From a virus (lineage: Duplodnaviria; Caudoviricetes): DNA of 64,000 nucleotides. Below are positions 3,422 through 26,890 of this stretch, one piece after another (position 1 is the first letter of the stretch; each line of letters begins with the position of its first letter). The position numbers were made by a program, and so were the translations under genes. The notes beneath the pieces are model-generated. The model saw only the letters and a list, made by a program, of their open reading frames with translations. It had not been told where the DNA came from and did no database searches. Location: IMG/VR virus record IMGVR_UViG_3300028048_001169, positions 1 to 64,000 of that record; one strand, 5' to 3'.

Positions 3422-3859
3422 ATGAATATTTACGGTGATGTATTTTTAAATGAGAAAGATAACAATATTGAGTCTGCTAAGAATTTCTATATAAAGGGCA
3501 TGGCTCATGCTATGAAGTACGAACTACAACCTAACAAACAATCTAAATCATGGTGTGATACAATGTTACATGCATATGATAATATTAATACTTTGAAAGG
3601 TGTAAATATTAATAAATTTGAAGATTTTTGTAGTGATCCTTCAAATTTCAAAACTAGAGTTATAAATTTATATAAAAAGGATACTGGTAAGTCGGATTCG
3701 GAGATACCAGAAGATATTAATAAAGAAATATTTACAGATCCAGATAAATTTATTACTTTTATTAAAAAATATTCTGCAACTTCGGATAGTAAAAAGTGGA
3801 TAGATACTTATGATATTAATTCTGGCACTACTAAAACTAAAAAGAAAAATAGAGGGTGA
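3422..3859 (+). CDS. DUF29-like protein with N-terminal MNIYGDVFLNE tag
   Basis: HAMKYELQPNKQSKSW resembles the DUF29 HLLKxxYQPxxRSxSW motif; tag matches the MIYGQTFLNE family. Confidence 0.6.
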   Translation: MNIYGDVFLNEKDNNIESAKNFYIKGMAHAMKYELQPNKQSKSWCDTMLHAYDNINTLKGVNINKFEDFCSDPSNFKTRVINLYKKDTGKSDSEIPEDINKEIFTDPDKFITFIKKYSATSDSKKWIDTYDINSGTTKTKKKNRG

Positions 3860-3884: not shown

Positions 3885-4796
3885 TTATTTATTGATTAAT
3901 AATGCCATGTCTGAGCAGTAATTCATCAACTCATTTTGTACATAACTCTCGAGATTAACGATAATACTATCACCATTCTTAAGGTTTAATGTAACGCTAG
4001 AAGCATCCTTACTGATCTGTGCGTTCTCGTAAATAATATCAAAGTTCTCTGTAACAAATTTTACATTCTTAGAGTCTTCTTTGATAAAGTTTACAACACT
4101 ATTATTTGTAATAGGAATAACACGAGCTGATTCGCTGCATAATACATCAGTATAATCTGTTGTCTCTAATAATTGATCTAATCGAGACTTTGGTAATTCG
4201 ATTGCACTAGATTCTGTTAATGCACTAGGATCAACAATACCCTGTGTATAAGCATGTGGATGTGATGGATAATAAACACGATCATAGCAAATCATTCTCA
4301 TACCATGAACAATATTACCTCTAGGTGACTTTTCAATCGTACCTAAAGCACGTAAAGAAAATGCTGGTTTACATCCTTCGCGAAGATCTTCATCTAATGC
4401 TTTTCCTAACGCATTATTCGTGCCTTCGAAATAACCAACAACATTATCTCCTTCTGTCCAGAATTTTAAAATTCTAAAACATACTTTAGTAGGATCGATA
4501 GTAGACTGTCTGGTAAGAGATGACTCTAATGGATGACCAGCTTCTCCTACGAACTCCTTATTACGTAATAACTCAATAGTTCTAGGACAAGTTAACTGAG
4601 GGAATAATTCACTCTTAGGATAAATACGACCATTACGGTTTACTTCATCAGCTGTCTGGAAAATAGCCTTTGCCATTACTTTACCATTTGCTTGTTCTTT
4701 AATGACAGACTGTGTTGTACATCTGTCGATATCATTCTCGTTCAGAATATAGTAGCCTACTGGCTTTGCTAAATCTGATTCTCTTAATATACTCAT
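3885..4796 (-). CDS. prohead (capsid maturation) protease, T4 gp21-like
   Basis: NRNGRIYP, GEAGHP (His), FSLRALG (Ser), YDRVYYPSHPHAY; AACA-N6-TA promoter at 4834-4845 (-). Confidence 0.88.
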   Translation of the reverse strand: MSILRESDLAKPVGYYILNENDIDRCTTQSVIKEQANGKVMAKAIFQTADEVNRNGRIYPKSELFPQLTCPRTIELLRNKEFVGEAGHPLESSLTRQSTIDPTKVCFRILKFWTEGDNVVGYFEGTNNALGKALDEDLREGCKPAFSLRALGTIEKSPRGNIVHGMRMICYDRVYYPSHPHAYTQGIVDPSALTESSAIELPKSRLDQLLETTDYTDVLCSESARVIPITNNSVVNFIKEDSKNVKFVTENFDIIYENAQISKDASSVTLNLKNGDSIIVNLESYVQNELMNYCSDMALLINK

Positions 4797-4912: not shown

Positions 4913-5353
4913 TTATCGAGCGTTCTGTACTCTCTGCTGCTCTGGAGTAGCCTTCTCCTTAGCTGCCTTCTTAATATACTCTTTCTGAGATACCTTAGCA
5001 AGACGAGCTGCCTTATTACCATACTTCTTGAATACAAGAGCACGATACTTCTTCCAAAGAGCACGATACTTGATGCACTTAGCGAAGTTAGGATCATTAG
5101 CTTCCTTAGCCAGCTGATAGCAGATAAGTCTCTCACGACGGATCATATCAGATTCTTTGCTGAGTCTCATAACTGTAGGTTTCTTCAGAACAGAACGCTC
5201 CATAAGAGCATTACAATGATCTGACTCTAACCACTCATGCAACTGATCAGAATTCATTCTCATAAGATCATCTACGAGAAATGATTCTACAACAGCGTCC
5301 ATATCTACTTCATTGTTTACATTGTCTAGCTGATTGTGTCCATATAATGACAT
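4913..5353 (-). CDS. putative prohead core/virion protein
   Basis: Directly upstream of the protease, AACA-N6-TA promoter at 5425-5436 (-), acidic N-half and basic C-half. Confidence 0.55.
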   Translation of the reverse strand: MSLYGHNQLDNVNNEVDMDAVVESFLVDDLMRMNSDQLHEWLESDHCNALMERSVLKKPTVMRLSKESDMIRRERLICYQLAKEANDPNFAKCIKYRALWKKYRALVFKKYGNKAARLAKVSQKEYIKKAAKEKATPEQQRVQNAR

Positions 5354-5547: not shown

Positions 5548-7707
5548 ATGGCAAAGACTGCACTGGGTGAATACAAAAAGACAATGGGTCGATTCGTACG
5601 AATGTTTGATTCAAATATTCCAGATGATCAATTATCAGCAGCATTGGATTATTCGATACAAAAACGATATAAACCATATAATGCTCAGCTGAATAATAGT
5701 TATACGTATCAGAAACAATCGACAACATTATTACAGTTAACGGATTGGATCTTTGAGAAGGAGCCGATTGTAACAGCATATGGAACTATGTTTAAAAGAC
5801 ATGCTCAAACAATCAATCCATTGACAACTGTTATACAGCAGTTTCTAGATACTAGATCTATTCATAAAAAAGAAATGTTCAAATATCCAAAAGGTTCTGA
5901 AGAATTTGAACGATATAATCTATATCAGCTATTAGATAAGATTGATTGTAATGGTATTTATGGATGCCTTGGTCAGTATAGTGCATTAATATATAACGTC
6001 AACGTCGCAACGTCTATTACAACACAGGGACGAGCTGCAGTATCTACAATGATGTGCTTCTTTGAGGCTTTCTTAAGTAATAATGTAAAGTTTGGAAGTC
6101 TCGATGAAGTATTAACGTTTATTGACCACGTTAAGTCTGAGTATAAAGATCGTAAGTATCAAGATAGTAAGATTCTTGATCATGATGTATCAGTAGCTGA
6201 TTGTTTTGCTAAGATTATTTATAGTTGTGGATTCCGCTGGGTACCTGATGATAGAGAAATGGATATCATCTGGAGAGTGGTTAATAACTTAGGTCAAGAA
6301 GATTTGAACCGAGTATATTATAAGAATAATCTCTATTATTTCTGTGAGAATTCTTATATGACAAATCTTATCAAAGAAACAATGGCTACAATGGAGACTC
6401 CTTATTATGATCCAAATAAACCACCAGAAGAAATCGTTGGATTATTAGACGAGTTTACATCATTATTACGTGAGTATGTATTCTATAACTGGATGTATGT
6501 TGATCGTATTGACAGAGCTGAGAATATGATTAAAAATATCTGTGTTATTTCTGATACAGATAGTAGTATTATCAGTCTTGATGCTTGGTTCCGTTTTGTT
6601 AACGATATGACAAAATATGATCATCTAAAGATTCAAAGAATTCAACCACGTAATCCGTTCAAAGTAATCGAGAAGGATGAATATGGAGATCCAGTACATA
6701 AGAGTGATTTATCTCCATTTATCCCATTAGAGCAAAATTATGACTATGATTTCGAAAACGATGAACTCGTTGCAATGAAGCATGTCATTAATCCATTTGT
6801 CATATTACCAGAAGATAATGTAAGATTCAGTATTATCAATATGATGTCATATGCTCTAACGAGATTAGTAAATGAGTATATGATTACATTGACAAAGAGA
6901 AGTGGATCTTATGCAGAAGGTAAGGAATGCAAATTATGGGCTAAGAATGAGTTGTTGATGAAACGTAGTCTTATCACTGAGTCCAAGAAAAACTATGCTT
7001 CTATTCAGGAATTACAAGAGGGTAATCGAATTCCTAAGAATAAGCAGTTAGATATCAAAGGCATTGAGTCTATGGCAAAATCAAATACAGCAGATTCTAC
7101 AAAGGATGCTTTGAAGAAGATCTTATTAGAAGATGTCATGAATGCTAGTACAATTGATCAGTTTAAGATTATTAAGCATATTGCAATTCTAGAGAAGCAG
7201 ATTACAGATTCTGTATTATCTGGATCAAAAGAGTTCTATAAACCAGCAACAATTAAATCTGCTGCAAATTATGAAACTCCGTTTAGAATTCAGGGTGTTA
7301 AAGGAGCATATGCTTGGAACAACCTGAAACCAGAGAGTGAGAACTTACCTGCAATTAATCTAGAAGAACGTAATGCTGTTGTAATAGCAAAGACTACCAT
7401 TGATATTAACACTGTGGAAACTTTAAAAGAAGATTTCCCAGAGGTATATGATAATGCAATGAAATTATTACGTTCTGATATCTTTGGATATAAGAAGGTA
7501 AAGAATAAGTCAGGTGAGAAGGAAGTCTTTGGTCATATTGATTGTGTATCAATTCCTTTAGATACTCCTACACCAGCATGGATTATGCGAGTAATTGATC
7601 TCAGTACAATTATCAATAATAATATCAAAGGATTCACATATGAATCTGTAGGTATTCAGAGATTACACAAAGACAAGGTTAATTATACAAATATGATCAA
7701 CCTATAA
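5548..7707 (+). CDS. family B DNA polymerase, C-terminal subunit of a split enzyme
   Basis: Motif B KIDCNGIYG, motif C ISDTDS, KKNYA, IKGIE; no motif A (DxxSLYPS) and no exonuclease motifs. Confidence 0.85.
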   Translation: MAKTALGEYKKTMGRFVRMFDSNIPDDQLSAALDYSIQKRYKPYNAQLNNSYTYQKQSTTLLQLTDWIFEKEPIVTAYGTMFKRHAQTINPLTTVIQQFLDTRSIHKKEMFKYPKGSEEFERYNLYQLLDKIDCNGIYGCLGQYSALIYNVNVATSITTQGRAAVSTMMCFFEAFLSNNVKFGSLDEVLTFIDHVKSEYKDRKYQDSKILDHDVSVADCFAKIIYSCGFRWVPDDREMDIIWRVVNNLGQEDLNRVYYKNNLYYFCENSYMTNLIKETMATMETPYYDPNKPPEEIVGLLDEFTSLLREYVFYNWMYVDRIDRAENMIKNICVISDTDSSIISLDAWFRFVNDMTKYDHLKIQRIQPRNPFKVIEKDEYGDPVHKSDLSPFIPLEQNYDYDFENDELVAMKHVINPFVILPEDNVRFSIINMMSYALTRLVNEYMITLTKRSGSYAEGKECKLWAKNELLMKRSLITESKKNYASIQELQEGNRIPKNKQLDIKGIESMAKSNTADSTKDALKKILLEDVMNASTIDQFKIIKHIAILEKQITDSVLSGSKEFYKPATIKSAANYETPFRIQGVKGAYAWNNLKPESENLPAINLEERNAVVIAKTTIDINTVETLKEDFPEVYDNAMKLLRSDIFGYKKVKNKSGEKEVFGHIDCVSIPLDTPTPAWIMRVIDLSTIINNNIKGFTYESVGIQRLHKDKVNYTNMINL

Positions 7708-9910: not shown

Positions 9911-11113
9911 ATGGCATCTATAAATTATGGTAAAATGACATCCGTTATTGCGGATAAATTATATCCATTTGTCGAAGTACATTTGGTAAAACGAGAGCGA
10001 CAATATAAAGCAGTTATTGCTGATTTCATGAATAAGAATCATGATATATTGTATGAGGTTGCTCCTTATGATAATATTTTCTTTACAAAAACAGATATTC
10101 TTAAATTTTTTATGGCTTTAGATATAAAAGAATCTGAGGTAAAAGCAATTACAAATGACTGTTACTTTGCTCATAAACCAGTCAATCCACCAGTGGTTAA
10201 AGTACCATATGCTCAGGTACTGGTTTGTATTTTGATGTATTATCTTAAACATAAGAAGCAAAAAGAAGCAGAGATTACATTACTCTATATGGCATTTAGT
10301 GGTAAATTTTATGCCAGCATCTTCGGTAAATATTTCAAAACAGCACCACCTAGCAAGTATCGTTCCACTATGGATTACGTTGTAAATAATATGCTAAATG
10401 ATAGATTTGATTTACGATCTAAAGGAAATTTATTCGGTGCAATTCGTAGTATGTGTATATCTCTCATTGAAATGTATGGAGATACATTAGCTGGACATCC
10501 AGATGATGAGGAGATCAAATACTTCATGCAGCAGTTACGAGATCGTGAAAATACTTTTATGAATCGTATTTTCAATCTTTATATTACAGCATGGCAAGAT
10601 AAGAAATACTTGAACTATGAATCAGATAATCTGGAAGATGGTTCTGAATTTAGAATCAGTGATAGTGATGCAACGATTGCTGCTCGTATTACAGAGAATG
10701 CTTTGAACTATATGCTAAATAATACAGTAAGTTTGAAGATCTGTAATATGTTTAGCGATGCAAATATCCGTCCAACAGAATTACGAGATATAATAGAAGC
10801 AATCGTAAATGATCGTAAGAATATAAATCAGTTACAACGTGTTATTAATATTCTGATTTGTGATTTTATGAAGAAGAATCCGAACAAACGTGTTGGTGAC
10901 GTTGACTTCTTGGGATATTGTCTCAAAGAACAACCAAATACTAAAGATGAGTATATTATCGAAATGCAAAGCATTATCGTAAGTTGGTTGGATGATAAGA
11001 GTCCTAATTATCGTCGACGTAAGAGTAGAAAGGCTACTGAGATTAGTTATCGAAAAGCCATTAAATTCTACATTACTATGGTAATAGCAAACGTAGCAAA
11101 TAAAACAAGGTAA
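9911..11113 (+). CDS. conserved-looking late protein, function unknown
   Basis: GGAGG RBS, 400 aa, late-type promoter. Confidence 0.75.
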   Translation: MASINYGKMTSVIADKLYPFVEVHLVKRERQYKAVIADFMNKNHDILYEVAPYDNIFFTKTDILKFFMALDIKESEVKAITNDCYFAHKPVNPPVVKVPYAQVLVCILMYYLKHKKQKEAEITLLYMAFSGKFYASIFGKYFKTAPPSKYRSTMDYVVNNMLNDRFDLRSKGNLFGAIRSMCISLIEMYGDTLAGHPDDEEIKYFMQQLRDRENTFMNRIFNLYITAWQDKKYLNYESDNLEDGSEFRISDSDATIAARITENALNYMLNNTVSLKICNMFSDANIRPTELRDIIEAIVNDRKNINQLQRVINILICDFMKKNPNKRVGDVDFLGYCLKEQPNTKDEYIIEMQSIIVSWLDDKSPNYRRRKSRKATEISYRKAIKFYITMVIANVANKTR

Positions 11114-11735: not shown

Positions 11736-11837
11736 AAAATCGTTTTTTTTTTTGAACTCTTATATAAATACGAAATTTGCTTATTAATAATAGGAGGAAT
11801 AAATTCTATGGTATATGGTAAAACATTTTTAAATGAA
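11736..11837 (+). repeat. about 100-bp promoter-RBS-tag module, inverted copy at 18103-18198
   Basis: AAAATCG(T)nGAACTCTTATATAAATAC...ATAATAGGAGGAATAA...ATGRTATATGGTMAAACATTTTTAAATGAA present in both copies. Confidence 0.85.
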
Positions 11838-12209
11838 GGCGTTGTAAGCCAAATTTTCTTGGTTAGAAAAATTAAGCCTAAAATGGATATTGTAGATGCT
11901 TATAAAAAGCATTCATATCCAGGTCTTTTAAATATGGTAAAGAACACTGATAATATCAATGATTTGAAATATCTTCTTAAAGATAGTACGACTGCAAGTA
12001 ATCAAGTAAAGATAATTGCTACACGAATTGATAAATGTAATAAGCTTGGTAATTGTGCAGAAACTAAGAATTATTACAAAGGTATCAAGAGTAAGTACAT
12101 TGATAAAGGCGTTACTGCTAAGGATATGGAAGTTTATAATAAATGGTTGAATGAAGTTTATAAGAAAGCAATTCAAGATAAAATAAAAGAGTTAAAGAAA
12201 GGAAAATAA
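11808..12209 (+). CDS. putative internal virion protein, tag MVYGKTFLNE
   Basis: N-terminal tag, basic 133-aa protein. Confidence 0.7.
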   Translation: MVYGKTFLNEGVVSQIFLVRKIKPKMDIVDAYKKHSYPGLLNMVKNTDNINDLKYLLKDSTTASNQVKIIATRIDKCNKLGNCAETKNYYKGIKSKYIDKGVTAKDMEVYNKWLNEVYKKAIQDKIKELKKGK

Positions 12210-12210
12210 T

Positions 12211-12819
12211 ATGATATACGGTCAAACATTTTTAGACGAGGGTCTAATATTTAAAAATGCTAATGAGAAGAAACTGATGGAAGAAATAAAATCAGTTTGT
12301 GCAAAATACAAAAGAAATCCTGGATTATTTGCTAGTTCAAAAGAATGTAATAAAGATGCTCCTGCAATGAGTCGAGATGTTTATAATAAACTAAAATCAA
12401 AATTTGATATCGTCTATCGTTCGTGTATTGTTGTTGAAACTACAAATTCAGTAGAAATGCCAGGTGCATCGGTTTTCTATACTTGTATTGATTTGAAAAA
12501 CAATACACAATATACGTTTAAATTATATTGCCATCCAAAGGACCCAAAAGCACACTCTATGATTGAAAAGAAATTTGATAAAATCACTGTTCCAGAAGAA
12601 GCTATTCGAAAAGTAATAGCTGCATGTAATGGTAAAGGATATCAAGCATCAATCACTGGTTCTGGCAATGCATTAAAAGTTTCACCTGTTATATCAACAT
12701 TCAACACTGGTGTATCCTTAGGTGCAATTGAGAGTATGATGAAATCTATTGCTGAGAAGAATGGAATGGAAATAAAAAATTTCCCATTGTCCAGCAAATA
12801 TACATTTGTACCTGCATAG
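12211..12819 (+). CDS. putative internal virion protein, tag MIYGQTFLDE
   Basis: N-terminal tag; body unrelated to neighbours. Confidence 0.7.
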   Translation: MIYGQTFLDEGLIFKNANEKKLMEEIKSVCAKYKRNPGLFASSKECNKDAPAMSRDVYNKLKSKFDIVYRSCIVVETTNSVEMPGASVFYTCIDLKNNTQYTFKLYCHPKDPKAHSMIEKKFDKITVPEEAIRKVIAACNGKGYQASITGSGNALKVSPVISTFNTGVSLGAIESMMKSIAEKNGMEIKNFPLSSKYTFVPA

Positions 12820-12829
12820 GAGGAATTCT

Positions 12830-13681
12830 ATGATATACGGACAATCATTTTTAAATGAGATGAAGGGTACTGATTGTATTGATATGGAGTTAATAACTTT
12901 AAGAAATTGGTACCCTGATCAAATGAGGGAACTTAGACTTCCTTACTTATATGATTCCATTGCATTGAGAGAATCGTTAGAATGTCTAGATGAGGCTGTA
13001 AAACAAAATGCAAAAGCTAAATCATTCTTTGATTCTTTAGGTATCGAATATGATAAGATTATATCTAGAGTCAAACAGTGTGGATCAGATATAGCTAAAG
13101 CAATTAAGTCAATTGGAGTTAATGATAAATCCAAGATGACAATATCTAAAGCTATTAGTTCCATGAATAAAGATATTGCTGATTATATGACAATTAATGA
13201 TTCTCCAGCATTAGAAAATATCTTTGGTACTGGGTATGATTTAAATAAAGTGAGAAAAGCTATTTCACTAACTTTAAGACTTATTGTAGCAAATACAATT
13301 ATAGCTAATGTATTAGTAATATTATTTGGTATGGGTGGTTATATACTTACTGTTGCAGTTGTTGCTCCTATCTTTGAAGAGTTCTCAAAGAATATTGCAA
13401 CAAAAGGAAAATTTGCTACAGAGTTTGCAATTGTATTTAATCTCTGTGAACTTAGTATGTATGTATCTAAAGGTGTTGGAGTTGCAACAAGAGTTATGGT
13501 TGCAGGTGTATTACATGGAACTAATGCAATTATACAATTCATTACTTCTGATGAAAAAGTACAGAAAGCTCTTAAAGTAAAGCCTGAAGATTCAGATAAA
13601 GTATCATTTATAGGTCAGACTGTTGCTACATTATATCATATTATTTGGAATTCTTTAGCAGTAGCTGCTGCATTTAAATAA
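12830..13681 (+). CDS. tagged (MIYGQSFLNE) protein with PrsW/CPBP-like intramembrane protease domain
   Basis: Start moved to ATG 12830 behind AGGAGG; hydrophobic helices with APIFEEFSK, LHG and YHIIWN motifs. Confidence 0.6.
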   Translation: MIYGQSFLNEMKGTDCIDMELITLRNWYPDQMRELRLPYLYDSIALRESLECLDEAVKQNAKAKSFFDSLGIEYDKIISRVKQCGSDIAKAIKSIGVNDKSKMTISKAISSMNKDIADYMTINDSPALENIFGTGYDLNKVRKAISLTLRLIVANTIIANVLVILFGMGGYILTVAVVAPIFEEFSKNIATKGKFATEFAIVFNLCELSMYVSKGVGVATRVMVAGVLHGTNAIIQFITSDEKVQKALKVKPEDSDKVSFIGQTVATLYHIIWNSLAVAAAFK

Positions 13682-13786
13682 GTATAAAAATGCTCAGTAG
13701 GGTTGGTTAAATGCTAACCCTAGTGAATTTACATTATAATAATTAGTAATATTATAAATAAATCGTCCCGGAAAGGAGATACTTAA

Positions 13787-14575
13787 ATGGGTATATATTC
13801 AAATCTGGCAAAAGAAACATTGGAGAAATCCACTGCATTTAATGAAGCTGCTTTAGAAGATAAGTATTCAACAAACTTATTTTACGGATCAGCAGAAGTA
13901 ATTGTTAGTGCTCGTAGTTACGATGAGGCTAAATTATTCGAGAAATTAGCAGTTTCTGATTTCAGTAGACTTAAGACATCTTTACGTGAGAATGCAGTCG
14001 ATAGTAGCACTATCGATAAGATTCTTATTTTCTATAATGAATCTGAACGATATCCTGAGTTCAATATCTTATACAAAGATGGACATAATCAGATTGTATC
14101 CGTTGATGAGAGTAAGAAATCCTTAGAGAAGTATTTCACAACAGATGTTGATCTTTCTAAAGTTACAGAAAAAGATCTTAAAGACAGTACCAAAGTTAAT
14201 AAGATTATTCGTTCACTTCGTAAAGAACAAGATGATAAGCAGAAACAGCGCTATGGTATTAAATTATTAAGATTGCTTGCAGAATATGTTGTTATGCTTG
14301 CAACTTCTCTGTCTGTAGTTACATTACCAATTACTATAATAACAGCTATTATTATGGTAATCGATGTTATTGGTAATACAATTGAAGAGATGAAAATCCC
14401 AAGAGAAGAATCTCTTCTTATTGTAAAGAGATTGGAAAAAGCAATCGAGAAAATCGAAAAGAATGATAAGATGACAGAAGCTCAAAAGAAGAAAGAGATT
14501 GCTAAGATCGAAAAGATTATTGATCACGTTGATGAGAAGTTATCTGCAAAAGAAGTTAAAGGTCTTTCTTTCTAA
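13787..14575 (+). CDS. putative virion protein with one hydrophobic segment
   Basis: MGIYSNLA...FNEA start resembles the 28199 gene; TACA-N6-TA variant promoter near 13730. Confidence 0.6.
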   Translation: MGIYSNLAKETLEKSTAFNEAALEDKYSTNLFYGSAEVIVSARSYDEAKLFEKLAVSDFSRLKTSLRENAVDSSTIDKILIFYNESERYPEFNILYKDGHNQIVSVDESKKSLEKYFTTDVDLSKVTEKDLKDSTKVNKIIRSLRKEQDDKQKQRYGIKLLRLLAEYVVMLATSLSVVTLPITIITAIIMVIDVIGNTIEEMKIPREESLLIVKRLEKAIEKIEKNDKMTEAQKKKEIAKIEKIIDHVDEKLSAKEVKGLSF

Positions 14576-14589
14576 AGAGGTTAATAATT

Positions 14590-15651
14590 ATGATTTACGG
14601 AAAAGTTTTTTTAGAATCAAATAATGTACAAAATGTTGAGCCATTTGATATTGTATTCGAAGAATACTTGAATAGAAAATCAATGCTGACAGAATGTACA
14701 AATTTAGAAGATAGAAGATTACTCGAGGCTCAGGTACAAGTTCTAAGAGAAGTATCATTCTCCTCTATTATCGATAAAATTGTAGAAATCTTTAAAAAGA
14801 TTGTTAGGTTTATTGAGAAGGCATATCTTAAAGTTATAGAATTGATTACTGGAGATAAGTATGATTCTATAAAAGGTATGATAAGTGCCTATAAAAATTA
14901 TAGTGAAGATAAGCTTAATTGGATTAATCGATTGATTAAGTCAGGAAGATTTGATGCTGTATTTGACTTGGAAAAATATGTAGATATGAGTAAAATATCT
15001 GATATTACTCAAGCTGTTCAGCAATCTTCTGATTGTATTAAAGATATACTTGCTGCAGATACTCGTTCAGAATTAATGAGTGCTAGAAGTAAGCTACCAA
15101 AGCATCAGGAGATTACAATCCTAACACAAGATGGTCTGAGTAGAGTTAATAGTCGTTTACAAGGCGATGTTAAGAATATCAATGATATGAAAGATAGAGT
15201 TTCAATATATCATAAAGTTTTAGATAATATTATCGAAAATGATAATGCTATAGAGATGAAGAAAGTTGTTGATAAGATCAATAGCACACATGATTTAGGA
15301 TTTTTTGAAACTTCTATTAGTAGTATTCCAAAACAGCGTGATCTATTAATGCGTTCTAGAGAGACAATGAAAAACCCTCAGAACACATTAGAGGCAATTA
15401 GTAGAGATCTTGAGAAAATATCTAAGAAAAAATCTCAGGAAAAACCAAAAACTTCAGATGCTACTGGTTTGTCTACTAATACAACACCAGATGACAATGA
15501 TGATAGTGGTGCAACTGATCAAGATATAAAGGATATTATTCAACTTACAACAATGATTAGACTTATCATTTCTTGTAATATGAATATCATCGGTGTTGTT
15601 GCCACACATTTGAAGCGTAAGGTAGATATATTAATTACGGCGCCTAGATAA
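14590..15651 (+). CDS. putative internal head protein, tag MIYGKVFLE
   Basis: Shares LEAQVQVLREVS...DKIVEIFKKI with the 16747-18132 protein. Confidence 0.7.
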   Translation: MIYGKVFLESNNVQNVEPFDIVFEEYLNRKSMLTECTNLEDRRLLEAQVQVLREVSFSSIIDKIVEIFKKIVRFIEKAYLKVIELITGDKYDSIKGMISAYKNYSEDKLNWINRLIKSGRFDAVFDLEKYVDMSKISDITQAVQQSSDCIKDILAADTRSELMSARSKLPKHQEITILTQDGLSRVNSRLQGDVKNINDMKDRVSIYHKVLDNIIENDNAIEMKKVVDKINSTHDLGFFETSISSIPKQRDLLMRSRETMKNPQNTLEAISRDLEKISKKKSQEKPKTSDATGLSTNTTPDDNDDSGATDQDIKDIIQLTTMIRLIISCNMNIIGVVATHLKRKVDILITAPR

Positions 15652-15679
15652 ATTATAAATCATATTGGAGGATAAATAA

Positions 15680-16672
15680 ATGGTTTATTGTAACGAAATT
15701 CAAAACGCAGCTTTAGACATGTCTGATTGTCTCAGCTTTGCTGGTATTAGCGAATCTGCTGAATATATTATAGAATCTTCTAATAGAGACTTCAGAACAA
15801 TGATTACTGAAATGAATCTTAATGAAGATGTATCTGGAGAGTATAATGAGAAGAATTTATTTCACAGAATAGCAGCTTGGGCTGTAGAAATCTGGGGTAA
15901 GATCAAGGGATTATTTGAAGCTGCTTTTAGAAAGATTAGTGAAATCATCACTGGTATTGTAACAAAGTTTGCTAGTTGGAGAATTAAGAATAAAGATCTT
16001 AAAGCAACTCTTCAGAATACCGATAAGTTTGAGTTCAAAGGATATAAATATGAAGAAATAGGAAATGGTATCGGTAATAAACCTTTTGATATGGAAGATG
16101 TAGAAAAGATAGTTAGAGCTATGTTTAATGGTAAAGTAATTGGTCAAGATCAATTAGCTGCAGCATCAGCAACATCATCAGGAGATATACTGAAACCTCT
16201 GGATTCAAAGCATATTGCAGAGCTTCGTGAAGATATTAGAGGATCTAAAGAAAAAGAAACTATCGGTAAAGATTACATTCTGAAGAATTTTGATAATATC
16301 TATAAATCTGTAACTGATTTCAAATCAGTAAAAGATTCAGAAAAGAAGAACTACGATGAACTTAAGAAAAATTGCGATGAAATCGTAAAAGCAGTAAAGA
16401 AAGAAAATAGTGAATTGGATGAAAAGGATGAGTGGAACAAAGTAAAGAAGTTACACATGAACAATATCCGAATTGCAATGAATAACAAGATTCGTATACA
16501 AGGTATTGAACTGTCCGAGCGCTATGCATGTATTCGTCGTAATGCTGCTATTTGTATGAAGCTTGGATCTTTGTCCAAGAACAATGAATCTTCAAAAGAA
16601 GATAAGCAGAAAGATACTAACTTAGGTGAGTCTAGTTCTTTCGTAAACAATCTTTTTGATTGGTCACTGTAA
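15680..16672 (+). CDS. putative internal head protein, paralogue of 29294-30229
   Basis: Shared EIQNA..DMSD..SFA, WxKIK, IRGSxxxET, RRNAAI and LFDW(S/N)L terminus. Confidence 0.75.
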   Translation: MVYCNEIQNAALDMSDCLSFAGISESAEYIIESSNRDFRTMITEMNLNEDVSGEYNEKNLFHRIAAWAVEIWGKIKGLFEAAFRKISEIITGIVTKFASWRIKNKDLKATLQNTDKFEFKGYKYEEIGNGIGNKPFDMEDVEKIVRAMFNGKVIGQDQLAAASATSSGDILKPLDSKHIAELREDIRGSKEKETIGKDYILKNFDNIYKSVTDFKSVKDSEKKNYDELKKNCDEIVKAVKKENSELDEKDEWNKVKKLHMNNIRIAMNNKIRIQGIELSERYACIRRNAAICMKLGSLSKNNESSKEDKQKDTNLGESSSFVNNLFDWSL

Positions 16673-16746
16673 TACTTATATAATACTATTACGGAAAATA
16701 ATCCCAGTAGGAAATTAATCCTACTGGGCTTTTGTTGTTGTAGATA

Positions 16747-18132
16747 TTACTTATTAGTTTTTCCGAAGTAATCATCTATTACGAATTTAGTATAGTCACT
16801 TGCACCAGATTTTAATGCGTTTATACCCATCACATTTGCCGCTGTATTTAATGTAGATGTAGCTACTCCGTTTGCTTTAGCAGAGTATAATGTAATTTGA
16901 GCTAAACAAGCAACATTATCTTTAAGCATAGCAATAACAGTTCTAAGTCCACTAATTGTAAGATTATCATAGGTTTTTTGAAAGTCAGTTTTAGCTTCAT
17001 CATTGCTTCTCTTGGACAGAATCTCATTGATCGCTTTTTCAGCATTTGCTATTCCTCTATCAAAATCAACAGTGCATTCCATCAAGTCTTCGTAGTTGTT
17101 ATCAATTACAAATGCAATATTTTTTATAGCATCAGCAAATGTACTTGATTCAGCCTGTTTTACTCTCTTTTGAAGATCGTTTGCTATATATTCTTTCAAA
17201 GCAGGTGCATAAGTTTTACCATAGAGACTACCTCGAATATTAAATCCTTTAGCATAATTATCTTCTTCTCCATTTAATAGTGCTTTTTTCACATCATCGG
17301 TTATAACTTGTACATATTTTTTATTATCCTCAAGCCATTCTCCAATCTCACGCTCGTATTGTTCAATATCACTATCAGAAAGCTTACCTTTTGAAGCAGG
17401 TCTTGTATTATTTGGATCAATATCGATAAAGACATTACATCGCGACATTTTAACAGGATTTACATCTTTTCTGAAATAATTGTAAGCGTTGAAATATAAT
17501 AATGGATTTTCGATTGCTTTTGAAAAGACACTATTAAGTTTCTTTGTTAATGCTTCTTTTTCAGCTGTTACATCTTTTATTTTAGTATTTGCTGCGTTGA
17601 GTTCTTTGTCCTTTTTATCAAGAGCATCGTTAGTATCTTTCAATTTTTTATTTGCTGCGTCAAGCTCTCTGTCTCTTTTTTGAAGATCGCGTTTAGCTTG
17701 AACTAATTCACTATTAAGTTCATGCTCATTATCCATATTTCTCATATTTTGCTCAAAGTTTTCCTTTTTGAGTTTCTCATTCATGAGATTGGCTTCTTCA
17801 AGCTTTTTCTTAACAGCTTTAAGCTCTTCTTCTTGTTTCTTTTTATCATCCTTATTAAAGAAACTCTTAATCTTATCAATGATCTTTTTGATAAAATCAC
17901 CAATCTTCTTTAAGAATGCTAAAAATTTATCTTTAATATCTTTAAGAGATACTTCTCTCAATACCTCTATCTGAGCTTCAATTAAAGAGCGTGTATGTTC
18001 ATCTTTACAAGACTCTAGCATTGTAACTCTATTTTGATACTCGTCGAATGCTACAGACTCTAAAAGAGATAAACTACTATCTCTTCGATTCTGATTTACA
18101 GATTCATTTAAAAATGTTTGACCATATATCAT
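16747..18132 (-). CDS. putative internal head protein, tag MIYGQTFLNE, coiled coil
   Basis: Tag; N-domain shared with 14590; heptad repeat KDRELDAANKKLKD / KDKELNAANTKIKD. Confidence 0.75.
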   Translation of the reverse strand: MIYGQTFLNESVNQNRRDSSLSLLESVAFDEYQNRVTMLESCKDEHTRSLIEAQIEVLREVSLKDIKDKFLAFLKKIGDFIKKIIDKIKSFFNKDDKKKQEEELKAVKKKLEEANLMNEKLKKENFEQNMRNMDNEHELNSELVQAKRDLQKRDRELDAANKKLKDTNDALDKKDKELNAANTKIKDVTAEKEALTKKLNSVFSKAIENPLLYFNAYNYFRKDVNPVKMSRCNVFIDIDPNNTRPASKGKLSDSDIEQYEREIGEWLEDNKKYVQVITDDVKKALLNGEEDNYAKGFNIRGSLYGKTYAPALKEYIANDLQKRVKQAESSTFADAIKNIAFVIDNNYEDLMECTVDFDRGIANAEKAINEILSKRSNDEAKTDFQKTYDNLTISGLRTVIAMLKDNVACLAQITLYSAKANGVATSTLNTAANVMGINALKSGASDYTKFVIDDYFGKTNK

Positions 18133-18198
18133 ATTAATTATTCCTCCTATTATAAACAGATTTAGTATTTATATAAGAGTTCAAAAAAAAACGATTTT
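18103..18198 (-). repeat. inverted copy of the 11736-11837 module
   Basis: Reverse complement aligns with 11736-11837. Confidence 0.85.
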
Positions 18199-21175: not shown

Positions 21176-23833
21176 TTAATCCATAACAAGTTCAATTTCA
21201 ATATCAGGTTTTAAAGTCTCACCATCATCAGCAAGGCGATTACGAATATTTATAAATTCTGGTACAACATGTGGATCTGTAACATCACGTAACAACATAT
21301 GCTGAATACCAAGACGATTATTATTGTAATTCATAAACTCAATAAATTCGATGGTATCTTTATATGTCTCAGTTATATCATGAATTAAATTTGGAATATG
21401 AATATCGGATAACTTATCCAAATCTTCCATATAATTCTTAATATATTCAATGATAGAATCTTTTGTTGTTGTATCAGAAGAGTTTAATAATCTTAATCTA
21501 AACTTCATAGAAATATCAAGATGACCAAGGGATGTTTCTTCTTTATCACCGATTGTATATGTAGCAGATTGACCATATGTATTAAAGAATTTGAAATCAA
21601 TCTTCATTGTATTTTCAACGATCTGTAAACAATGATCAATGTATGCTTTACGGTCACTCAGTTTATTAATCAGATATGTAACTTTATCCTCATTCTGGAA
21701 ATAATGATATCCAACCATTGGTATTCCATAGATATCGTATTTCACAACTGATTCATCTTCTGATTTATTTACAACAACTCTTGTGTTCATTACATCTGTG
21801 AAATTCTCGAAGAAAGTTAATCCACCTTCAATCTCATAGATATTTAATAAACTATAATCATCATATCCAGGGCATATCTTGGATAACAAATGATCTTCAT
21901 CTGGATATACTTGATCGAATTTAGCTGCTATATATAAATATGCTTCACAGTTATTCTCAAAGAATCCATAATTCTTACTATTATAACCAGCTTCATACAG
22001 ATTGGTTAATTTAATACGATTTGCTGTATCAAATGCATTATCTGTTTCCAAAGAAGCTTTCCATTGTGTTGTAAATAGATCTTCAGAATATCCTTCTATA
22101 GTACATTCTTGATATCGATATGGTGCATGATTCTGATAGATTACTAAGAAGCACTTAATGTCACAATGCTTCAATTGCTTTGTATCTTGATCAACTTCTA
22201 ATAATCCATAATCCTGATTGATACTCTGTGTAATATTGAATGTAAAGTTATATTCCATATTATTTGTAAGCATCTTACGTTCAAAATGATTACGAATAGT
22301 TGTAAAACCAAGATAACAATTCTGATTAGCAAATTTGTAATTGAAATAACTATCATGATTTACTGTAGTCAGATAGTATGCACAATACAGAGGATCTTCA
22401 TTTAATACAATATTCTGAATAGATTTGTAGTAATAGAGATTCTTTTTATCATCAAAATATGCATCAGAAAATGGTTCTGGTACATCACTCTCAGCAATAT
22501 AAACTCCATATCCAACCTTTGGATCGTATAAAAAGTTTGTACCGCATGGAATAATATAACGACCATCTGATACTTTGACAACATATGGATCAGATATCTG
22601 GAACTTAATACGGAATGTATTTGCTGGTATCATATTTTCATTCTCATCTTTTAATAAGTAATATGCATACCAAATTCGACTGATCTGATTATCAACCTTT
22701 TCTTGGAGCTTAATAATATTCTCTTCATCTGAAATAAGATTGAAGTAATTATTAAGGTCTGTTTCTGTTGTAATATATCCACGACTCATTGCCATCTTTG
22801 GAATTAAAGATTTTAATTCATCAATAGACTTACGATCAGCACCATTAACAGAATCTGTTGCTGTACGAATATAGCAGGTAATCTTTTTATTGTTGGAATA
22901 CGTTGATACAAAGTCACAATATAAATCGTTCTCTTCTGTATCATTGTATGTAAAGTTACCTGCTGCTCCACTTGTTGTTCTAGTAATAATATGAATCTTA
23001 GAATTTAATCCCGGAGTATAAGAATTTGAATCAAATGATACTCGTACTGTATTGTCGTTGACGTAAAGATACCAGCAATATTTTGTTACACCTTGTTCTA
23101 CAGGTGATCCATAGAATAATGGTGTTAATCTGGTTTCCACATCATTATCCGTTACATATACTTCAAAGTCTGCTAACTGACCATCAAAAGAGAATGTATA
23201 AGATTTATTATCAATAACAGATCTAGTGATAATTGTATCTTCTACTTCTCCAATCGATACTTGATGTACAGTTGTAGTGAAGAATACATAACTAAAATTA
23301 TTAAAATTCTGTACTAACGGCTGTGCTAAGTAAGCATTATTAATCTTTGAGATATTATTAGGGTTACCCATATCATACATTGCTGTATAGATATAAGTAT
23401 CAGAACCAGCTGGTTTATATCTCTTTAAGATAATATCATAATCCAAATGGAAAATATAATTTCCAATGAAGATCGCATTCTTATGATCGAATATAAACTC
23501 ATTATGATTCATATAAATATCAAGATCAGATGTCTTGATACCAATATTGATTGTTAGTTCCGCTGGTACAGCGTTAATTCCTTCAATATTACAATAAATA
23601 GCATGTGTTAAGATATTCTTATCTAACTTAGCTCTAGAAGGAAACATTTCGTTTCCTAACTCTCCAGCCATAACTGTAGAGATTTGGATCTTCTTAGCTT
23701 CTACATCACCTAAGAATCCAAAGATACCTAATGCAAGAGTAGTTTCATCTTCATCATTGATGAATCTTGCTTTTATTTTATCAACAGAATCTCGGATATC
23801 ATAGATATCTGTCGAAATATTAAAATCACTCAT
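21176..23833 (-). CDS. baseplate wedge protein (T4 gp6 / baseplate J-like)
   Basis: TTSGAAGN and NGADRKSIDELKSLIP...RGYITTETDL motifs; 885 aa. Confidence 0.75.
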   Translation of the reverse strand: MSDFNISTDIYDIRDSVDKIKARFINDEDETTLALGIFGFLGDVEAKKIQISTVMAGELGNEMFPSRAKLDKNILTHAIYCNIEGINAVPAELTINIGIKTSDLDIYMNHNEFIFDHKNAIFIGNYIFHLDYDIILKRYKPAGSDTYIYTAMYDMGNPNNISKINNAYLAQPLVQNFNNFSYVFFTTTVHQVSIGEVEDTIITRSVIDNKSYTFSFDGQLADFEVYVTDNDVETRLTPLFYGSPVEQGVTKYCWYLYVNDNTVRVSFDSNSYTPGLNSKIHIITRTTSGAAGNFTYNDTEENDLYCDFVSTYSNNKKITCYIRTATDSVNGADRKSIDELKSLIPKMAMSRGYITTETDLNNYFNLISDEENIIKLQEKVDNQISRIWYAYYLLKDENENMIPANTFRIKFQISDPYVVKVSDGRYIIPCGTNFLYDPKVGYGVYIAESDVPEPFSDAYFDDKKNLYYYKSIQNIVLNEDPLYCAYYLTTVNHDSYFNYKFANQNCYLGFTTIRNHFERKMLTNNMEYNFTFNITQSINQDYGLLEVDQDTKQLKHCDIKCFLVIYQNHAPYRYQECTIEGYSEDLFTTQWKASLETDNAFDTANRIKLTNLYEAGYNSKNYGFFENNCEAYLYIAAKFDQVYPDEDHLLSKICPGYDDYSLLNIYEIEGGLTFFENFTDVMNTRVVVNKSEDESVVKYDIYGIPMVGYHYFQNEDKVTYLINKLSDRKAYIDHCLQIVENTMKIDFKFFNTYGQSATYTIGDKEETSLGHLDISMKFRLRLLNSSDTTTKDSIIEYIKNYMEDLDKLSDIHIPNLIHDITETYKDTIEFIEFMNYNNNRLGIQHMLLRDVTDPHVVPEFINIRNRLADDGETLKPDIEIELVMD

Positions 23834-25017
23834 ACTTGTGCATCACCTCTCCACTTTAATTTATATACATATTTTCCAGGGGCTGTTTGATGTGTAAACT
23901 TAGTATCTGTAATTTGTATACCAGCTTTAGACTTATATATTACAGGAGTTCCTCCATCTTCTTCTTTTACAACGCAAGCACAACGAGCTGGTCTCATATC
24001 AGCTGTGTCTAGACTGTCATTGTATGCATCCATATTATACTTACAGTCATCAGTAGTATTGAAATATGGTAATGCTAGTTTGTTAAAATCACTTAAGATC
24101 TGTGGGTCCATGTCTTCAACAAACGCTGCATTAAAATCGATTGTATAAGATAAACCGTTATCAAAGGATGTATTGCTGAATACATCTCTTGGTAAACTCT
24201 TCGATTTTACACCATAATACTTTGCATAATAAATAATTGTCTCATTATCTTCCGCTACTAAAAATTTATAGATAGCATATTGATCATGCAAAATACAATT
24301 ATCTGTATATACTCTAGCCGGTGCAACTACTCCATGATGTTTCAACTTCTCGTAATCTTCATACGCTCTAAAGAAATGATATACAGGTAAGTACTTTGTA
24401 TCTTTAAATTCCAGCGAAAAATCAAAACCATCATCGGATGCCTCTGATGATCCCTTATAATTATAATTTACTCCGTATGTATTTGACGGAGTATCAATCA
24501 TTTCAGAAGATAAACTAGGTACATCTAAATTACTCTGTACCATATTTGATAATAAATGATTAAATGGATCTAAAGGATTTGTTATGTTATGATAAGCTCC
24601 CTCGAGACATTCGATTACTCCTGGATAACGAGCAGATAACTCCTGCCAATAAGGATAATCTTTTAAACCAGGATGTAATTTTTCTTGACCAGAGGTAACA
24701 CTACCATCAGCATTGTTTTGTTTATATATGTTTAGCTGAGGTTTTGTAAAGAAGATATATTCTCTACAAGTATCAACCATCTGCTTATCATTCAATACAC
24801 CAAAACGATAATGAGAATTATATATTCCGTTGACTAACTCAGTACTAGTAACAAAGTTATTGGATCGATAGATTAACTTCTCATATCTTTTTTCATATCT
24901 AGATTGATCATTAATGGCATTTTTTCGTCCATATTTATCGTTTGATATTGCACGTCTTTTTCCATGCATTCTGGGCCTTTTATTAAGCGCACCTGCACTG
25001 TATTCACCATCTTCCAT
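23830..25017 (-). CDS. putative baseplate/tail tube-like structural protein
   Basis: Late promoter, overlaps the baseplate gene start, beta-rich tube-like pattern. Confidence 0.5.
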   Translation of the reverse strand: MEDGEYSAGALNKRPRMHGKRRAISNDKYGRKNAINDQSRYEKRYEKLIYRSNNFVTSTELVNGIYNSHYRFGVLNDKQMVDTCREYIFFTKPQLNIYKQNNADGSVTSGQEKLHPGLKDYPYWQELSARYPGVIECLEGAYHNITNPLDPFNHLLSNMVQSNLDVPSLSSEMIDTPSNTYGVNYNYKGSSEASDDGFDFSLEFKDTKYLPVYHFFRAYEDYEKLKHHGVVAPARVYTDNCILHDQYAIYKFLVAEDNETIIYYAKYYGVKSKSLPRDVFSNTSFDNGLSYTIDFNAAFVEDMDPQILSDFNKLALPYFNTTDDCKYNMDAYNDSLDTADMRPARCACVVKEEDGGTPVIYKSKAGIQITDTKFTHQTAPGKYVYKLKWRGDAQV

Positions 25018-25117: not shown

Positions 25118-26890
25118 ATGCCAACGACATATTTAAATGAAGGTGTATTTAGCGCACTGGTTGGATTAGCTAAATCGGCTAGAGTTGTAGGTGATCTGAA
25201 GAATTCTGCAGATGCTATTATGGGTCTTGGTAATTTTATTAAGACTGGTAAATTTGACTCTAAGACCGCGGCATTATATAAGTCTAATAAAGCAAAAAGA
25301 GCTGCTGAGAAGTATAGAAAATCTACTTCTATTGCTCGAGCTTCAAAAGACTTAATTATGTCATTTCCTACAATCTGTAGTGATGTAATTAGCCCTGAAA
25401 CCGCTGCTATGATTAATAAAGCAGTGGAGCGTAAAAACGTTCAGATGATCCAAATGATTGCAGCTGCAGCTCATCTTCAGGGATATAATGGCCAGGATGT
25501 AATTAAACAGATTCATACAAATATGGGTATTAACTTCAACGTAGATGATTACGTTGATGCTATGCTTGCTTTAGGTGATACTTTTAATGAATCAGTGTCT
25601 TTAGAGGGAGTTCCATATAATACACTTGCAGAAGATTATAGAGATGCATTTTTAGCAACTCTAAATATTTGTTATCCTCTGGATAGCTTATCTGAATCTT
25701 CTATCAATGATTATGCAGTGAAGGGTGCTTATAGTATCAATCCTACTGTTGTAAAGCTTACAGAGGCTAAACATAGAAAGAATAATCAGCATAGTAGTCG
25801 GGTTAGACATCCAGAACCTTATACTGATCAAAATAATGTATTTGGTCGTAGTCCAGAATTACAAAGAACTCGAGATCAAAAATATGATGATGCATTTAGA
25901 AGATTTGAATCTATGGTTGACACAAAAGAACTTAATGTTCGTAATAAGAGAATGGATCAAACGATAAAATCTAATAACCCGTCATATGATTATTACAAAG
26001 ATAAATCAGCAGATCTTGCCAATAGGAAATTTAAGTATCAGAAAGATCAAGATAAACAAAACCGTGCGGATAATTATCAAAAGATGGCTTCGGATAGACT
26101 TAGAGATAGACGAGATTATGATTATCGTGTAGGCAGAGATGAGATTGAAGATCAGCGTTATGATGCTCGTCAGAATGCAGAGATGCTTAAAGCTAAATCT
26201 GATCACTTCAGTAAGCAGTTATTAGATTCTGATGTAAAGAAGGCAAATGAATTAATGCCTACTATGATTGTTCTTCGTTATCAGGTAGCAGATCCAGATA
26301 AAGATCCATCTGCTGTTACTTCTGATATTCAGGATGAGTTTATTGCCGGTGTTAAGTCTCGTTTAATTTCTGTTCCTTCTCAGGAGATTATGGATCGTGT
26401 CATTGATATGAATCGTAATGGCGTTAATATGAACAACTTGATTCGTGCTACATCAAAGGAAACTTCTTTCACAAGAGATTTCTTAGCAGGAATTCAGCAG
26501 GCTAAGATTGATGCTAAGAAGGATTCTAAGTTAAGTAAGTCTAATCCTATTTGGAGATCTCTTCAGGCTCGTTCTAATCGTTCTAGAATTAATCGTCTTG
26601 CTAGAGTATCAAATAGTGCAGCTGCTATTACGACATTGATTATTTCTGTTCAGGAAGTAGAGTCTATTAAGGCTGAATATAATATTGATTTATTAAATCC
26701 AGTAGTAGCTTCTGAATTTATGGCTACTTATAACTTAATGGCACTGGTTATTGTAGATGAACAGAATGCTGTTGCTCACTTTATTTATGATGGTGATGTA
26801 TACTTTGAAGATTTAGCATTTGCTTCTTTAGAGAAGGATAATGATAGATCTTATAAGCAGGTCGTAAGTCTATTAAATCGTATTCGCTAG
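25118..26890 (+). CDS. putative virion structural protein
   Basis: Late promoter 25075; MPTTYLNE start; FNES, LSES, LTEA sites. Confidence 0.6.
   Translation: MPTTYLNEGVFSALVGLAKSARVVGDLKNSADAIMGLGNFIKTGKFDSKTAALYKSNKAKRAAEKYRKSTSIARASKDLIMSFPTICSDVISPETAAMINKAVERKNVQMIQMIAAAAHLQGYNGQDVIKQIHTNMGINFNVDDYVDAMLALGDTFNESVSLEGVPYNTLAEDYRDAFLATLNICYPLDSLSESSINDYAVKGAYSINPTVVKLTEAKHRKNNQHSSRVRHPEPYTDQNNVFGRSPELQRTRDQKYDDAFRRFESMVDTKELNVRNKRMDQTIKSNNPSYDYYKDKSADLANRKFKYQKDQDKQNRADNYQKMASDRLRDRRDYDYRVGRDEIEDQRYDARQNAEMLKAKSDHFSKQLLDSDVKKANELMPTMIVLRYQVADPDKDPSAVTSDIQDEFIAGVKSRLISVPSQEIMDRVIDMNRNGVNMNNLIRATSKETSFTRDFLAGIQQAKIDAKKDSKLSKSNPIWRSLQARSNRSRINRLARVSNSAAAITTLIISVQEVESIKAEYNIDLLNPVVASEFMATYNLMALVIVDEQNAVAHFIYDGDVYFEDLAFASLEKDNDRSYKQVVSLLNRIR

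Follow-up and report, generated by a model that had tools for sequence, protein, structure and literature searches.

Why would a phage begin six otherwise dissimilar proteins with nearly the same ten residues? This question is raised by the first 64 kb (64,000 nucleotides, hereafter the window) of IMG/VR record IMGVR_UViG_3300028048_001169, the 225,070-bp genome of an uncultivated Caudoviricetes jumbo phage (G0) with a CheckV completeness of 92% and a guanine-plus-cytosine content of about 32%. Six of its genes, all but one within a 6.3-kb cluster, encode proteins that start with a leader of the type MIYGxxFLNE (the tag), which the initial annotation took to be an independent capsid-targeting signal. 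From the sequence comparisons described below, we consider it rather probable that the tag is a T4-style leader, which would target proteins to the capsid and be clipped by the head protease, on a hypervariable set of head-internal proteins. The principle is known from T4; it would be new for the AR9-like phage lineage, where the literature did not expect it.

The leader and the proteins that carry it

The six tagged open reading frames (ORFs) are as follows; Φ stands for a hydrophobic residue and an arrow for a putative cut.

3422-3859, plus strand: tagged ORF of 145 amino acids (aa), an ORFan convergent with the protease gene; tag MNIYGDVFLNE at 3422-3454
11808-12209, plus strand: tagged ORF of 133 aa, strongly basic; tag MVYGKTFLNE at 11808-11837
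12211-12819, plus strand: tagged ORF of 202 aa, a basic ORFan; tag MIYGQTFLDE at 12211-12240
12830-13681, plus strand: tagged PrsW-like ORF of 283 aa; tag MIYGQSFLNE at 12830-12859, second putative site CLDE55↓A
14590-15651, plus strand: tagged ORF of 353 aa, paralogue of the N-terminal third of 16747-18132; tag MIYGKVFLE at 14590-14616
16747-18132, minus strand: tagged ORF of 461 aa; tag MIYGQTFLNE at 18103-18132, putative Φ-x-E↓S/A sites at residues 25, 40 and 52

All six N-termini translate as the initial annotation had reported them, and a Shine-Dalgarno sequence (a GGAGG-type ribosome-binding site, RBS) precedes each start. Tyr3, Gly4, Phe7, Leu8 and the terminal Glu are invariant. The tag ends in F-L-N/D-E or V-F-L-E, and the residue that follows is G, S, M or K. 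A search of the whole record in six frames with the pattern [IVL]Y[GSA]..[FLIVY]L.{0,1}E returned these six sites only, and every one of them is an ORF start. Amino-acid composition predicts about 0.5 occurrences of [IV]YG..FL across all six frames and, at ORF starts, about 5e-4; chance was rejected as an explanation. Synonymous codons differ at the conserved residues (TAC/TAT, GGT/GGA, GAG/GAA and ATA/ATT), which indicates that the tag is conserved at the peptide level by selection on the peptide itself.

Beyond the tag, all-against-all BLASTP found only the products of 14590 and 18132 to be alike (35% identity over 128 aa, E 1e-11). The earlier statement that similarity stops at the Glu except in this pair is upheld as far as BLASTP is concerned; the propeptide itself, however, would extend further in the PrsW-like family and in the coiled-coil pair described below. 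The tag's DNA pattern had no match in IMG/VR and five in metagenome contigs, where only contig L024 was a true relative and the other four were internal chance matches. The DNA of the cluster and two of the tagged proteins (hereafter also cargos) had no BLAST match among 50,697 phage records.

The carriers differ widely. Directly compared with the PrsW family (PF13367), the 283-aa protein scored 12 bits (E 0.15); 37 of its 42 aligned homologues, however, match that family at E <= 0.01 (best 8.5e-9). Within the alignment E183, E184, K187, E207, R221 and H229 are invariant, and H270, W273 and N274 are nearly so. Judged by these motifs (EExxK, H229 and HxxWN), the C-terminal part is a predicted PrsW-like intramembrane metalloprotease domain. 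When 1.84 billion representative proteins were searched with phmmer, 177 relatives of similar length were recovered. The family has a conserved pro-region of about 55 residues, and its common elements are N-I-S/T-P-E-Q-I and a near-invariant Φ-x-E↓A/S (LDE55↓A in G0). Within this family at any rate, a longer pro-region thus seems to begin with the decapeptide. An AlphaFold2 (AF2) model of the cargo had a mean predicted local distance difference test (pLDDT) score of 81.5, with a helical body modelled confidently from residue 61 and low confidence at residues 1-60, as would be expected of a flexible pro-region. A Foldseek search of the model against the PDB gave no significant match.

The 461-aa protein and its paralogue at 14590-15651 are both long and of helical or coiled-coil character, and several putative sites (LLE↓S, MLE↓S and LIE↓A) fall within their residues 1-55. 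The tag is kept in orthologues at 71-90% identity to the 461-aa protein, and no related loci of this gene were found in metagenome contigs. Its AF2 model (pLDDT 46) was too poor for a fold search. The three small ORFans (3422, 11808 and 12211) have only near-identical relatives among 5.8 billion proteins. The protein at 11808-12209 has 28 Lys and Arg against 14 Asp and Glu, which recalls the basic internal proteins of T4, and its orthologue on L024 keeps the tag. That at 3422-3859 is only slightly basic (24 against 21) and has a single relative, 92% identical, in the 5.8e9 proteins. The ESM Atlas model of the 12211-12819 product has low confidence and gives a weak lead to small polyvalent-protein-associated domains. 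As predicted from sequence, then, the cargo set comprises a PrsW-like membrane protease, two coiled-coil proteins that weakly resemble the phiKZ internal protein (IP) family, and three small, mostly basic ORFans.

The cluster consists of two convergent units, with these regulatory elements:

11745-11837, plus strand: promoter-RBS-tag module, with AACT-N6-TATAAAT at 11755-11768, GGAGG and the tag; left arm of an inverted repeat of about 93 nucleotides (nt)
16682-16737, no strand assigned: hairpin-like terminator common to the two convergent units
18103-18191, minus strand: right arm, the inverted promoter-RBS-tag module, about 90% complementary to 11745-11837

A T-run and a AACTCTTATATAAATAC element lie upstream of both 11808 and 18132. 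The late-type motif AAC[AT]-N6-TA[TA]A is found at both ends of the cluster and also upstream of the sheath, terminase and other virion genes. The two modules are inverted copies of about 93 nt, about 90% identical, that bracket the cluster. At the other four tagged genes the peptide is conserved and the upstream DNA is not.

The head protease and the leader in related phages

Two genes next to the tagged gene at 3422 have to be introduced here:

3885-4796, minus strand: prohead protease of the T4 gp21 (S77) family; His88, Ser147 and Asp172 conserved, N-terminus GYYILNE-20
4913-5353, minus strand: small conserved virion protein of 146 aa that starts MSLYG and adjoins the protease gene; phrog_26909 'virion structural protein'

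The initial annotation's assignment of a gp21-like protease to 3885-4796 is well founded. The product matches the Peptidase_S77 family of Pfam (PF03420) with 52.8 bits (cut-off 27), phrog_207 with E 2e-25 and the crystal structure of T4 gp21 (PDB 5JBL) with E 1e-8, and its His and Ser align with the positions that were mutated to Ala in 5JBL. Around the conserved 400-aa gene at 9911-11113, 14 IMG/VR contigs yielded sister loci, and four relatives were read whole: G1 (119 kb), which is the closest, G2 (243 kb, 99% complete) and the more distant G3 and G4. H88, S147 and D172 are invariant in the protease alignment of G0, G1 and G2. So is Glu20 at the end of an N-terminal G-Y-(Y)-I-Φ-x-E motif (YILNE in G0), and T4 gp21 has LIE-9 at the corresponding place (PMC9026906).

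The ending Φ-L-[ND]-E occurs within the first 25 residues of eight proteins of the G0 proteome, where 1.9 would be expected; the eight are five tagged proteins, the protease, a virion protein like AR9 g214 and a GroEL-like protein. The last of these, a chaperonin encoded at 39689-41548 on the plus strand (phrog_5725, 7.6e-60), is extended at its N-terminus by about 35 residues, among them AILNE at residue 14, which ends just as the tag does. In G0, G1 and G2, conserved proteins of the virion block have Φ-x-E↓A/S at fixed N-terminal positions, for example VLNE↓AL near residue 44 and S-F/Y-A-x-x-x-E↓A near residue 25. In sequence, these sites are what would be expected if the protease cleaved behind Glu and took a hydrophobic residue at P3.

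The tag is older and more widespread than the window alone would suggest. Among 123 full-length PrsW-like homologues (25-42% identical), 44 start with M-x(0-3)-Φ-[YF]-[GS], and in 29 of these 44 the next Glu stands at positions 9-12. Examples are MSIYGNLILNE, MIYGNTFLKE, MIYGQRFLE and MAVYGRSILE. All of the tag-bearing homologues are metagenomic, on contigs of up to 257 kb; searches for related loci with PrsW-family alignments or with P0096 as query found none. The PrsW family is absent from the five relatives examined, the six cargos have no homologue in G1 or G2, and the flanking core genes are 50-62% identical. The G1 interval equivalent to the 6.3-kb cluster is only about 2.5 kb.

The sister phages nevertheless have leaders of their own. 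In G1, five genes preceded by a Shine-Dalgarno sequence start with MFYG[VI]IxE, and their products are mutually unrelated beyond about 13-38 residues. One of these is a double GNAT acetyltransferase (L038:2614-3534, minus strand; Pfam E 4e-24) with the tag MFYGIIYE, and its neighbours with MFYGVIxE are a P-loop protein and ORFans. G2 encodes MIYG-starting proteins, one of them with a DUF29 domain (E 9.5e-12). Counts of N-terminal Φ-[YF]-[GS] starts were 14 in G0, 10 in G1 and 10 in G2, against an internal control of 3 in each. Because 44 of the PrsW-like homologues as well as G1 and G2 have tags of this kind, the initial view of an independent capsid-targeting signal needs amendment here: the signature is clade-wide and much older, not private to G0. 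The core idea of that view fits all the sequence tests. The motif is confined to N-termini, where it closes with hydrophobic-L-x-E, and its carriers are unrelated; the gene of the S77 protease is close by, and the tagged genes belong to late-promoter units that neighbour virion genes.

Proposed capsid targeting weighed against other roles

The closest known counterpart is the capsid-targeting sequence (CTS) of T4, MKTYQEFIAE (PMC8442874). It is carried by IPI, IPII and IPIII and, as a short propeptide, by Alt, and is removed by gp21 (Mullaney & Black 1996; PMC9026906, PMC3012670). Suppressor analysis has assigned targeting to its residues 4 and 7 and processing to residues 8 and 10 (PMC9026906). 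Like the G0 tag, the T4 CTS has about 10 residues, lies at the extreme N-terminus and ends in Φ-x-Glu, with an aromatic residue at position 3 or 4, Phe7, Ile or Leu at 8 and Glu10. When the two are set side by side, M1, Q5, F7 and E10 match, position 8 is I in one and L in the other, and the Tyr is shifted by one position, in a comparison that at 10 residues is too short for statistics. We would therefore say that the G0 tag works like the T4 CTS, as 10 residues cannot establish homology. The invariant Y3, F7, L8 and E10 correspond to the residues with mapped functions in the T4 CTS, which supports a targeting and processing leader. In both phages the proteins that carry the leader are otherwise unrelated, in part basic, and different from one related phage to the next, and each phage encodes an S77-family protease with a similar site near its own N-terminus. 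The G0 tag differs in its sequence (MIYGxxFLNE) and in that it belongs to a jumbo phage of the AR9/phiKZ supergroup and not to a T4-like one; among its proposed cargos are a polytopic PrsW-like protease and IP-like coiled-coil proteins with extra internal sites.

Work on phiKZ, 201phi2-1 and SPN3US has described long, protein-specific propeptides and treated a short portable CTS as a speciality of T4. The proteases of SPN3US and phiKZ cut after Glu at A/S/G-x-E, and giant-phage propeptides are mostly longer than 100 residues, which the authors contrast with the 10-20-residue T4 CTS (PMC5694885, PMC10052503). According to the same papers, phiKZ gp93 undergoes cleavage at SLE-13, and SPN3US gp53 and gp54 have N-termini that are identical over 15 residues (PMC5694885, PMC10052503), which sets a precedent for the leader within the phiKZ supergroup. 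In the phiKZ genome (NC_004629), we found an L-x-S-L-E-type motif near residues 8-14 of all eight PF12699 paralogues, in agreement with the published cut in gp93. G0 shares with phiKZ and SPN3US the jumbo supergroup, a gp21-related protease (gp175 in phiKZ and gp245 in SPN3US, which process inner-body and ejection proteins) that cuts after Glu (predicted in G0) and a short N-terminal site followed by further pro-region sites, and the 461-aa G0 cargo is weakly PF12699-like. In phiKZ and SPN3US, in contrast, shared N-termini occur within the paralogues of one family and P3 is A/S/G, whereas in G0 one leader extends over unrelated folds and P3 is Leu.

A third comparison is with the polymorphic ip loci of T-even phages (Repoila et al. 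1994, as presented in PMC9026906). Both they and the G0 cluster are hypervariable sets in which only the leader is kept, the content is wholly different between close relatives, and repeated leader and promoter DNA is a possible substrate for recombination. Unlike those loci, the tag itself has diverged between the sister phages (10-residue MIYGxxFLNE against 8-residue MFYGVIxE), and tagged genes are found at other genomic positions. The complete turnover of cargos between sister phages would fit an accessory, host-directed role, by analogy with the T-even internal-protein loci. By the same analogy, and that with the regulatory cassettes of T4-type genomes, the inverted modules could allow inversion, cassette exchange or module shuffling.

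Taken together, these comparisons lead us to infer a pathway of docking, cleavage, packaging and ejection. The tagged proteins would be made late in infection, and Tyr3/Gly4 and Phe7 of the leader would dock them to the assembling prohead core. The gp21-family serine protease encoded at 3885-4796 would then cut after Glu10, with Leu at P3 and Glu at P1, and some cargos would be cut at the deeper Φ-x-E↓A/S sites as well. The mature proteins would stay inside the head and be released with the DNA. Ejection into the host and anti-defence roles would be plausible, though by analogy only.

Several observations weigh against this T4-style reading. The major capsid protein and the scaffold were not identified in the G0 record, which leaves no capsid maturation site to set beside the tag. 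The specificity of the protease is deduced from motif conservation alone, and characterised giant-phage proteases favour A/S/G at P3 and not Leu. No recognisable tag was seen in 79 of the 123 PrsW-family homologues, for which start-codon calls are a possible cause, and the distant G3 and G4 are without the signature (0 and 2 N-terminal Φ-[YF]-[GS] starts). In the PrsW-like family the near-invariant site is E55 and not E10, and the tag may thus not be the cut site, or may be one cut site of several. A polytopic membrane protease would also be an awkward head-internal cargo. Finally, the 461-aa protein reaches 24.8-25.7 bits against phiKZ_IP (PF12699), below the 27-bit gathering cut-off and over a coiled-coil-rich stretch, and its hhalign comparison with the eight phiKZ IPs is weak (probability 58% over 35 columns).

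One alternative is a leader that is a propeptide and nothing more, removed by the protease in order to keep, for example, the PrsW-like protease or a GNAT enzyme inactive until head maturation. Such a leader would contain no targeting information, and packaging would proceed via other parts of the proteins. The tag does end in a motif at which cleavage is plausible, giant phages as a rule have long propeptides, and the PrsW-like pro-region of about 55 residues has further conserved elements that would be able to carry targeting. However, the six unrelated proteins have just the decapeptide in common, which means that any common packaging determinant would have to lie within it. Moreover, Y3, G4 and F7, upstream of L-x-E, are invariant although a mere cleavage site does not need them, and it is at these positions that targeting resides in T4. 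We regard a pure propeptide as unlikely.

The leader might also address another late machine, such as the GroEL-like chaperonin, an intermediate of tail or baseplate assembly, or the membrane. In favour of this are the phage's own GroEL homologue, the transmembrane (TM)-like segments of two proteins of the cluster, and the N-terminus of the T4 head protein, which has been reported to direct proteins to GroEL (reference 29 in PMC10052503). The leader, however, is neither hydrophobic nor signal-peptide-like, and it ends in a Glu-type head-protease site that the protease itself has as well. An MxΦYG start is, in addition, found on the small conserved protein at 4913-5353, whose orthologues begin MSLYG in G1 and MSIYG in G2 and which is syntenic with g168, a proteomically defined structural protein of phiR1-37. 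A destination other than the head seems to us distinctly improbable.

Conservation could alternatively act on the nucleic acid, with a promoter-RBS-start cassette spread by recombination or gene conversion for strong late expression and the peptide as its passenger. The two inverted modules at 11808 and 18132, with about 90% identity over some 93 nt including promoter and RBS, are what such a cassette would look like, and mobile regulatory cassettes are known in T4-type genomes (PMC2839356). A purely DNA-level cassette was nevertheless rejected, because the peptide is kept with synonymous codon variation while the upstream DNA differs at four genes. Homologues at 30-40% identity keep the peptide pattern, and G1 keeps another peptide, MFYGVIxE, in five genes; we give this explanation very little weight. 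Least credible of all is that the six genes are extremely diverged paralogues of one internal-protein family in which the N-terminus alone is still recognisable: 14590 and 18132 are indeed paralogues, and the phiKZ IP paralogues also have a common N-terminal motif, but simple paralogy was rejected since the carriers span the PrsW, GNAT and DUF29 superfamilies, which are unrelated and have cellular homologues.

A capsid-targeting, protease-clipped leader therefore remains our preferred reading, and it can be extended in a more speculative direction. We tentatively suggest, as a possibility that we rate well below the reading itself, that AR9-like gut jumbo phages, probably infecting Bacillota, use a fast-evolving portable capsid-address code that co-varies with its receptor or protease between sister lineages (MIYGxxFLNE against MFYGVIxE). 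With it they would inject whole enzymes (a PrsW-type protease, GNAT, P-loop and DUF29 proteins) as host-takeover or anti-defence effectors of the first minutes. If the preferred reading is confirmed, the solution of T4 would operate in the AR9/phiKZ supergroup too, and an N-terminal Mx[IV]YG...Φ-x-E would be a simple sequence rule by which the head-packaged and probably injected proteins of uncultivated jumbo phages from gut and rumen could be listed. The PrsW-like protease, GNAT, DUF29 and basic ORFan proteins would be candidates for early host-takeover or anti-defence functions, and the lineage-specific tag variants would offer a natural experiment on the co-evolution of tag and receptor. 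Should enzymes indeed be injected, such phages would be a natural protein-delivery chassis for bacteria beyond T4's reach, although the practical value of this hinges on a cultivable relative.

Placement of the phage and other genes of the region

The 885-aa protein encoded at 21176-23833 on the minus strand has about 24% identity to AR9 g212 and to its counterparts in PBS1, the Staphylococcus jumbo phages, Listeria LPJP1 and phiR1-37, and the products of 23830-25017, 25118-26890 and 26903-28117 match the AR9 virion proteins g213, g214 and g215. Because of these matches, G0 is placed, by sequence, as a distant member of the AR9/PBS1/phiR1-37 branch of the phiKZ supergroup. In AR9 itself (KU878088), several proteins with a virion annotation have Φ-L-x-E-like endings within their first 8-13 residues (g096 SLNE-13, g115 LLVE-12, g215 LLE-11 and g216 FLLE-8), an observation that is anecdotal. 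The AR9 zincin protease g118, whose gene adjoins the capsid gene, starts MVDTILLE.

Leaders of looser form had been reported at three further genes of the window, and they do exist as sequence. They form a separate, older class, which is kept in sister-phage orthologues. These genes and an untagged member of the cluster are:

13787-14575, plus strand: untagged ORF with the second-class leader MGIYSNLAKE and two TM-like segments; partial G1 orthologue
15680-16672, plus strand: untagged cluster ORF that starts MVYCNE; paralogue of the virion-block gene 29294-30229
25118-26890, plus strand: homologue of AR9 g214 (minor virion structural protein) with the short leader MPTTYLNE↓GV; ITLDE↓SV in the G1 orthologue
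28199-29275, plus strand: conserved virion-block protein with the leader MGVYSSLALE; MGVYS start kept in the G1 and G2 orthologues

The paralogues at 15680-16672 and 29294-30229 (34% identity, E 1e-43) both start M-x-Y-x-x-EIQNA and have a conserved S-F/Y-A-x-x-x-E↓A/S near residue 25; the first copy sits within the cargo cluster.

Searches of the G0 record for a major capsid protein gave no match with the AR9 protein as query (BLASTP and phmmer) and nothing with phrog_20655 and phrog_138. The capsid protein of G0 would be either very divergent or encoded in the missing 8% or so of the genome. A 549-aa late protein encoded at 133544-135193 was considered as a candidate and dropped, as it resembles phiKZ gp182 and decorator or tail-initiator proteins; its matches to the solved jumbo-phage chains 'capsid decorator gp77' and 'tail tube initiator complex protein gp203' have E values of 1e-15 to 4e-10. 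The conserved 400-aa protein of 9911-11113 has no PDB match, and its Atlas model is poor. The DNA polymerase gene (5548-7707) is a single ORF in G0 and G1. In G2 (146916-151261) it is divided into three ORFs with gaps of 0.8-1.3 kb, which suggests the presence of intervening elements (introns or homing genes).

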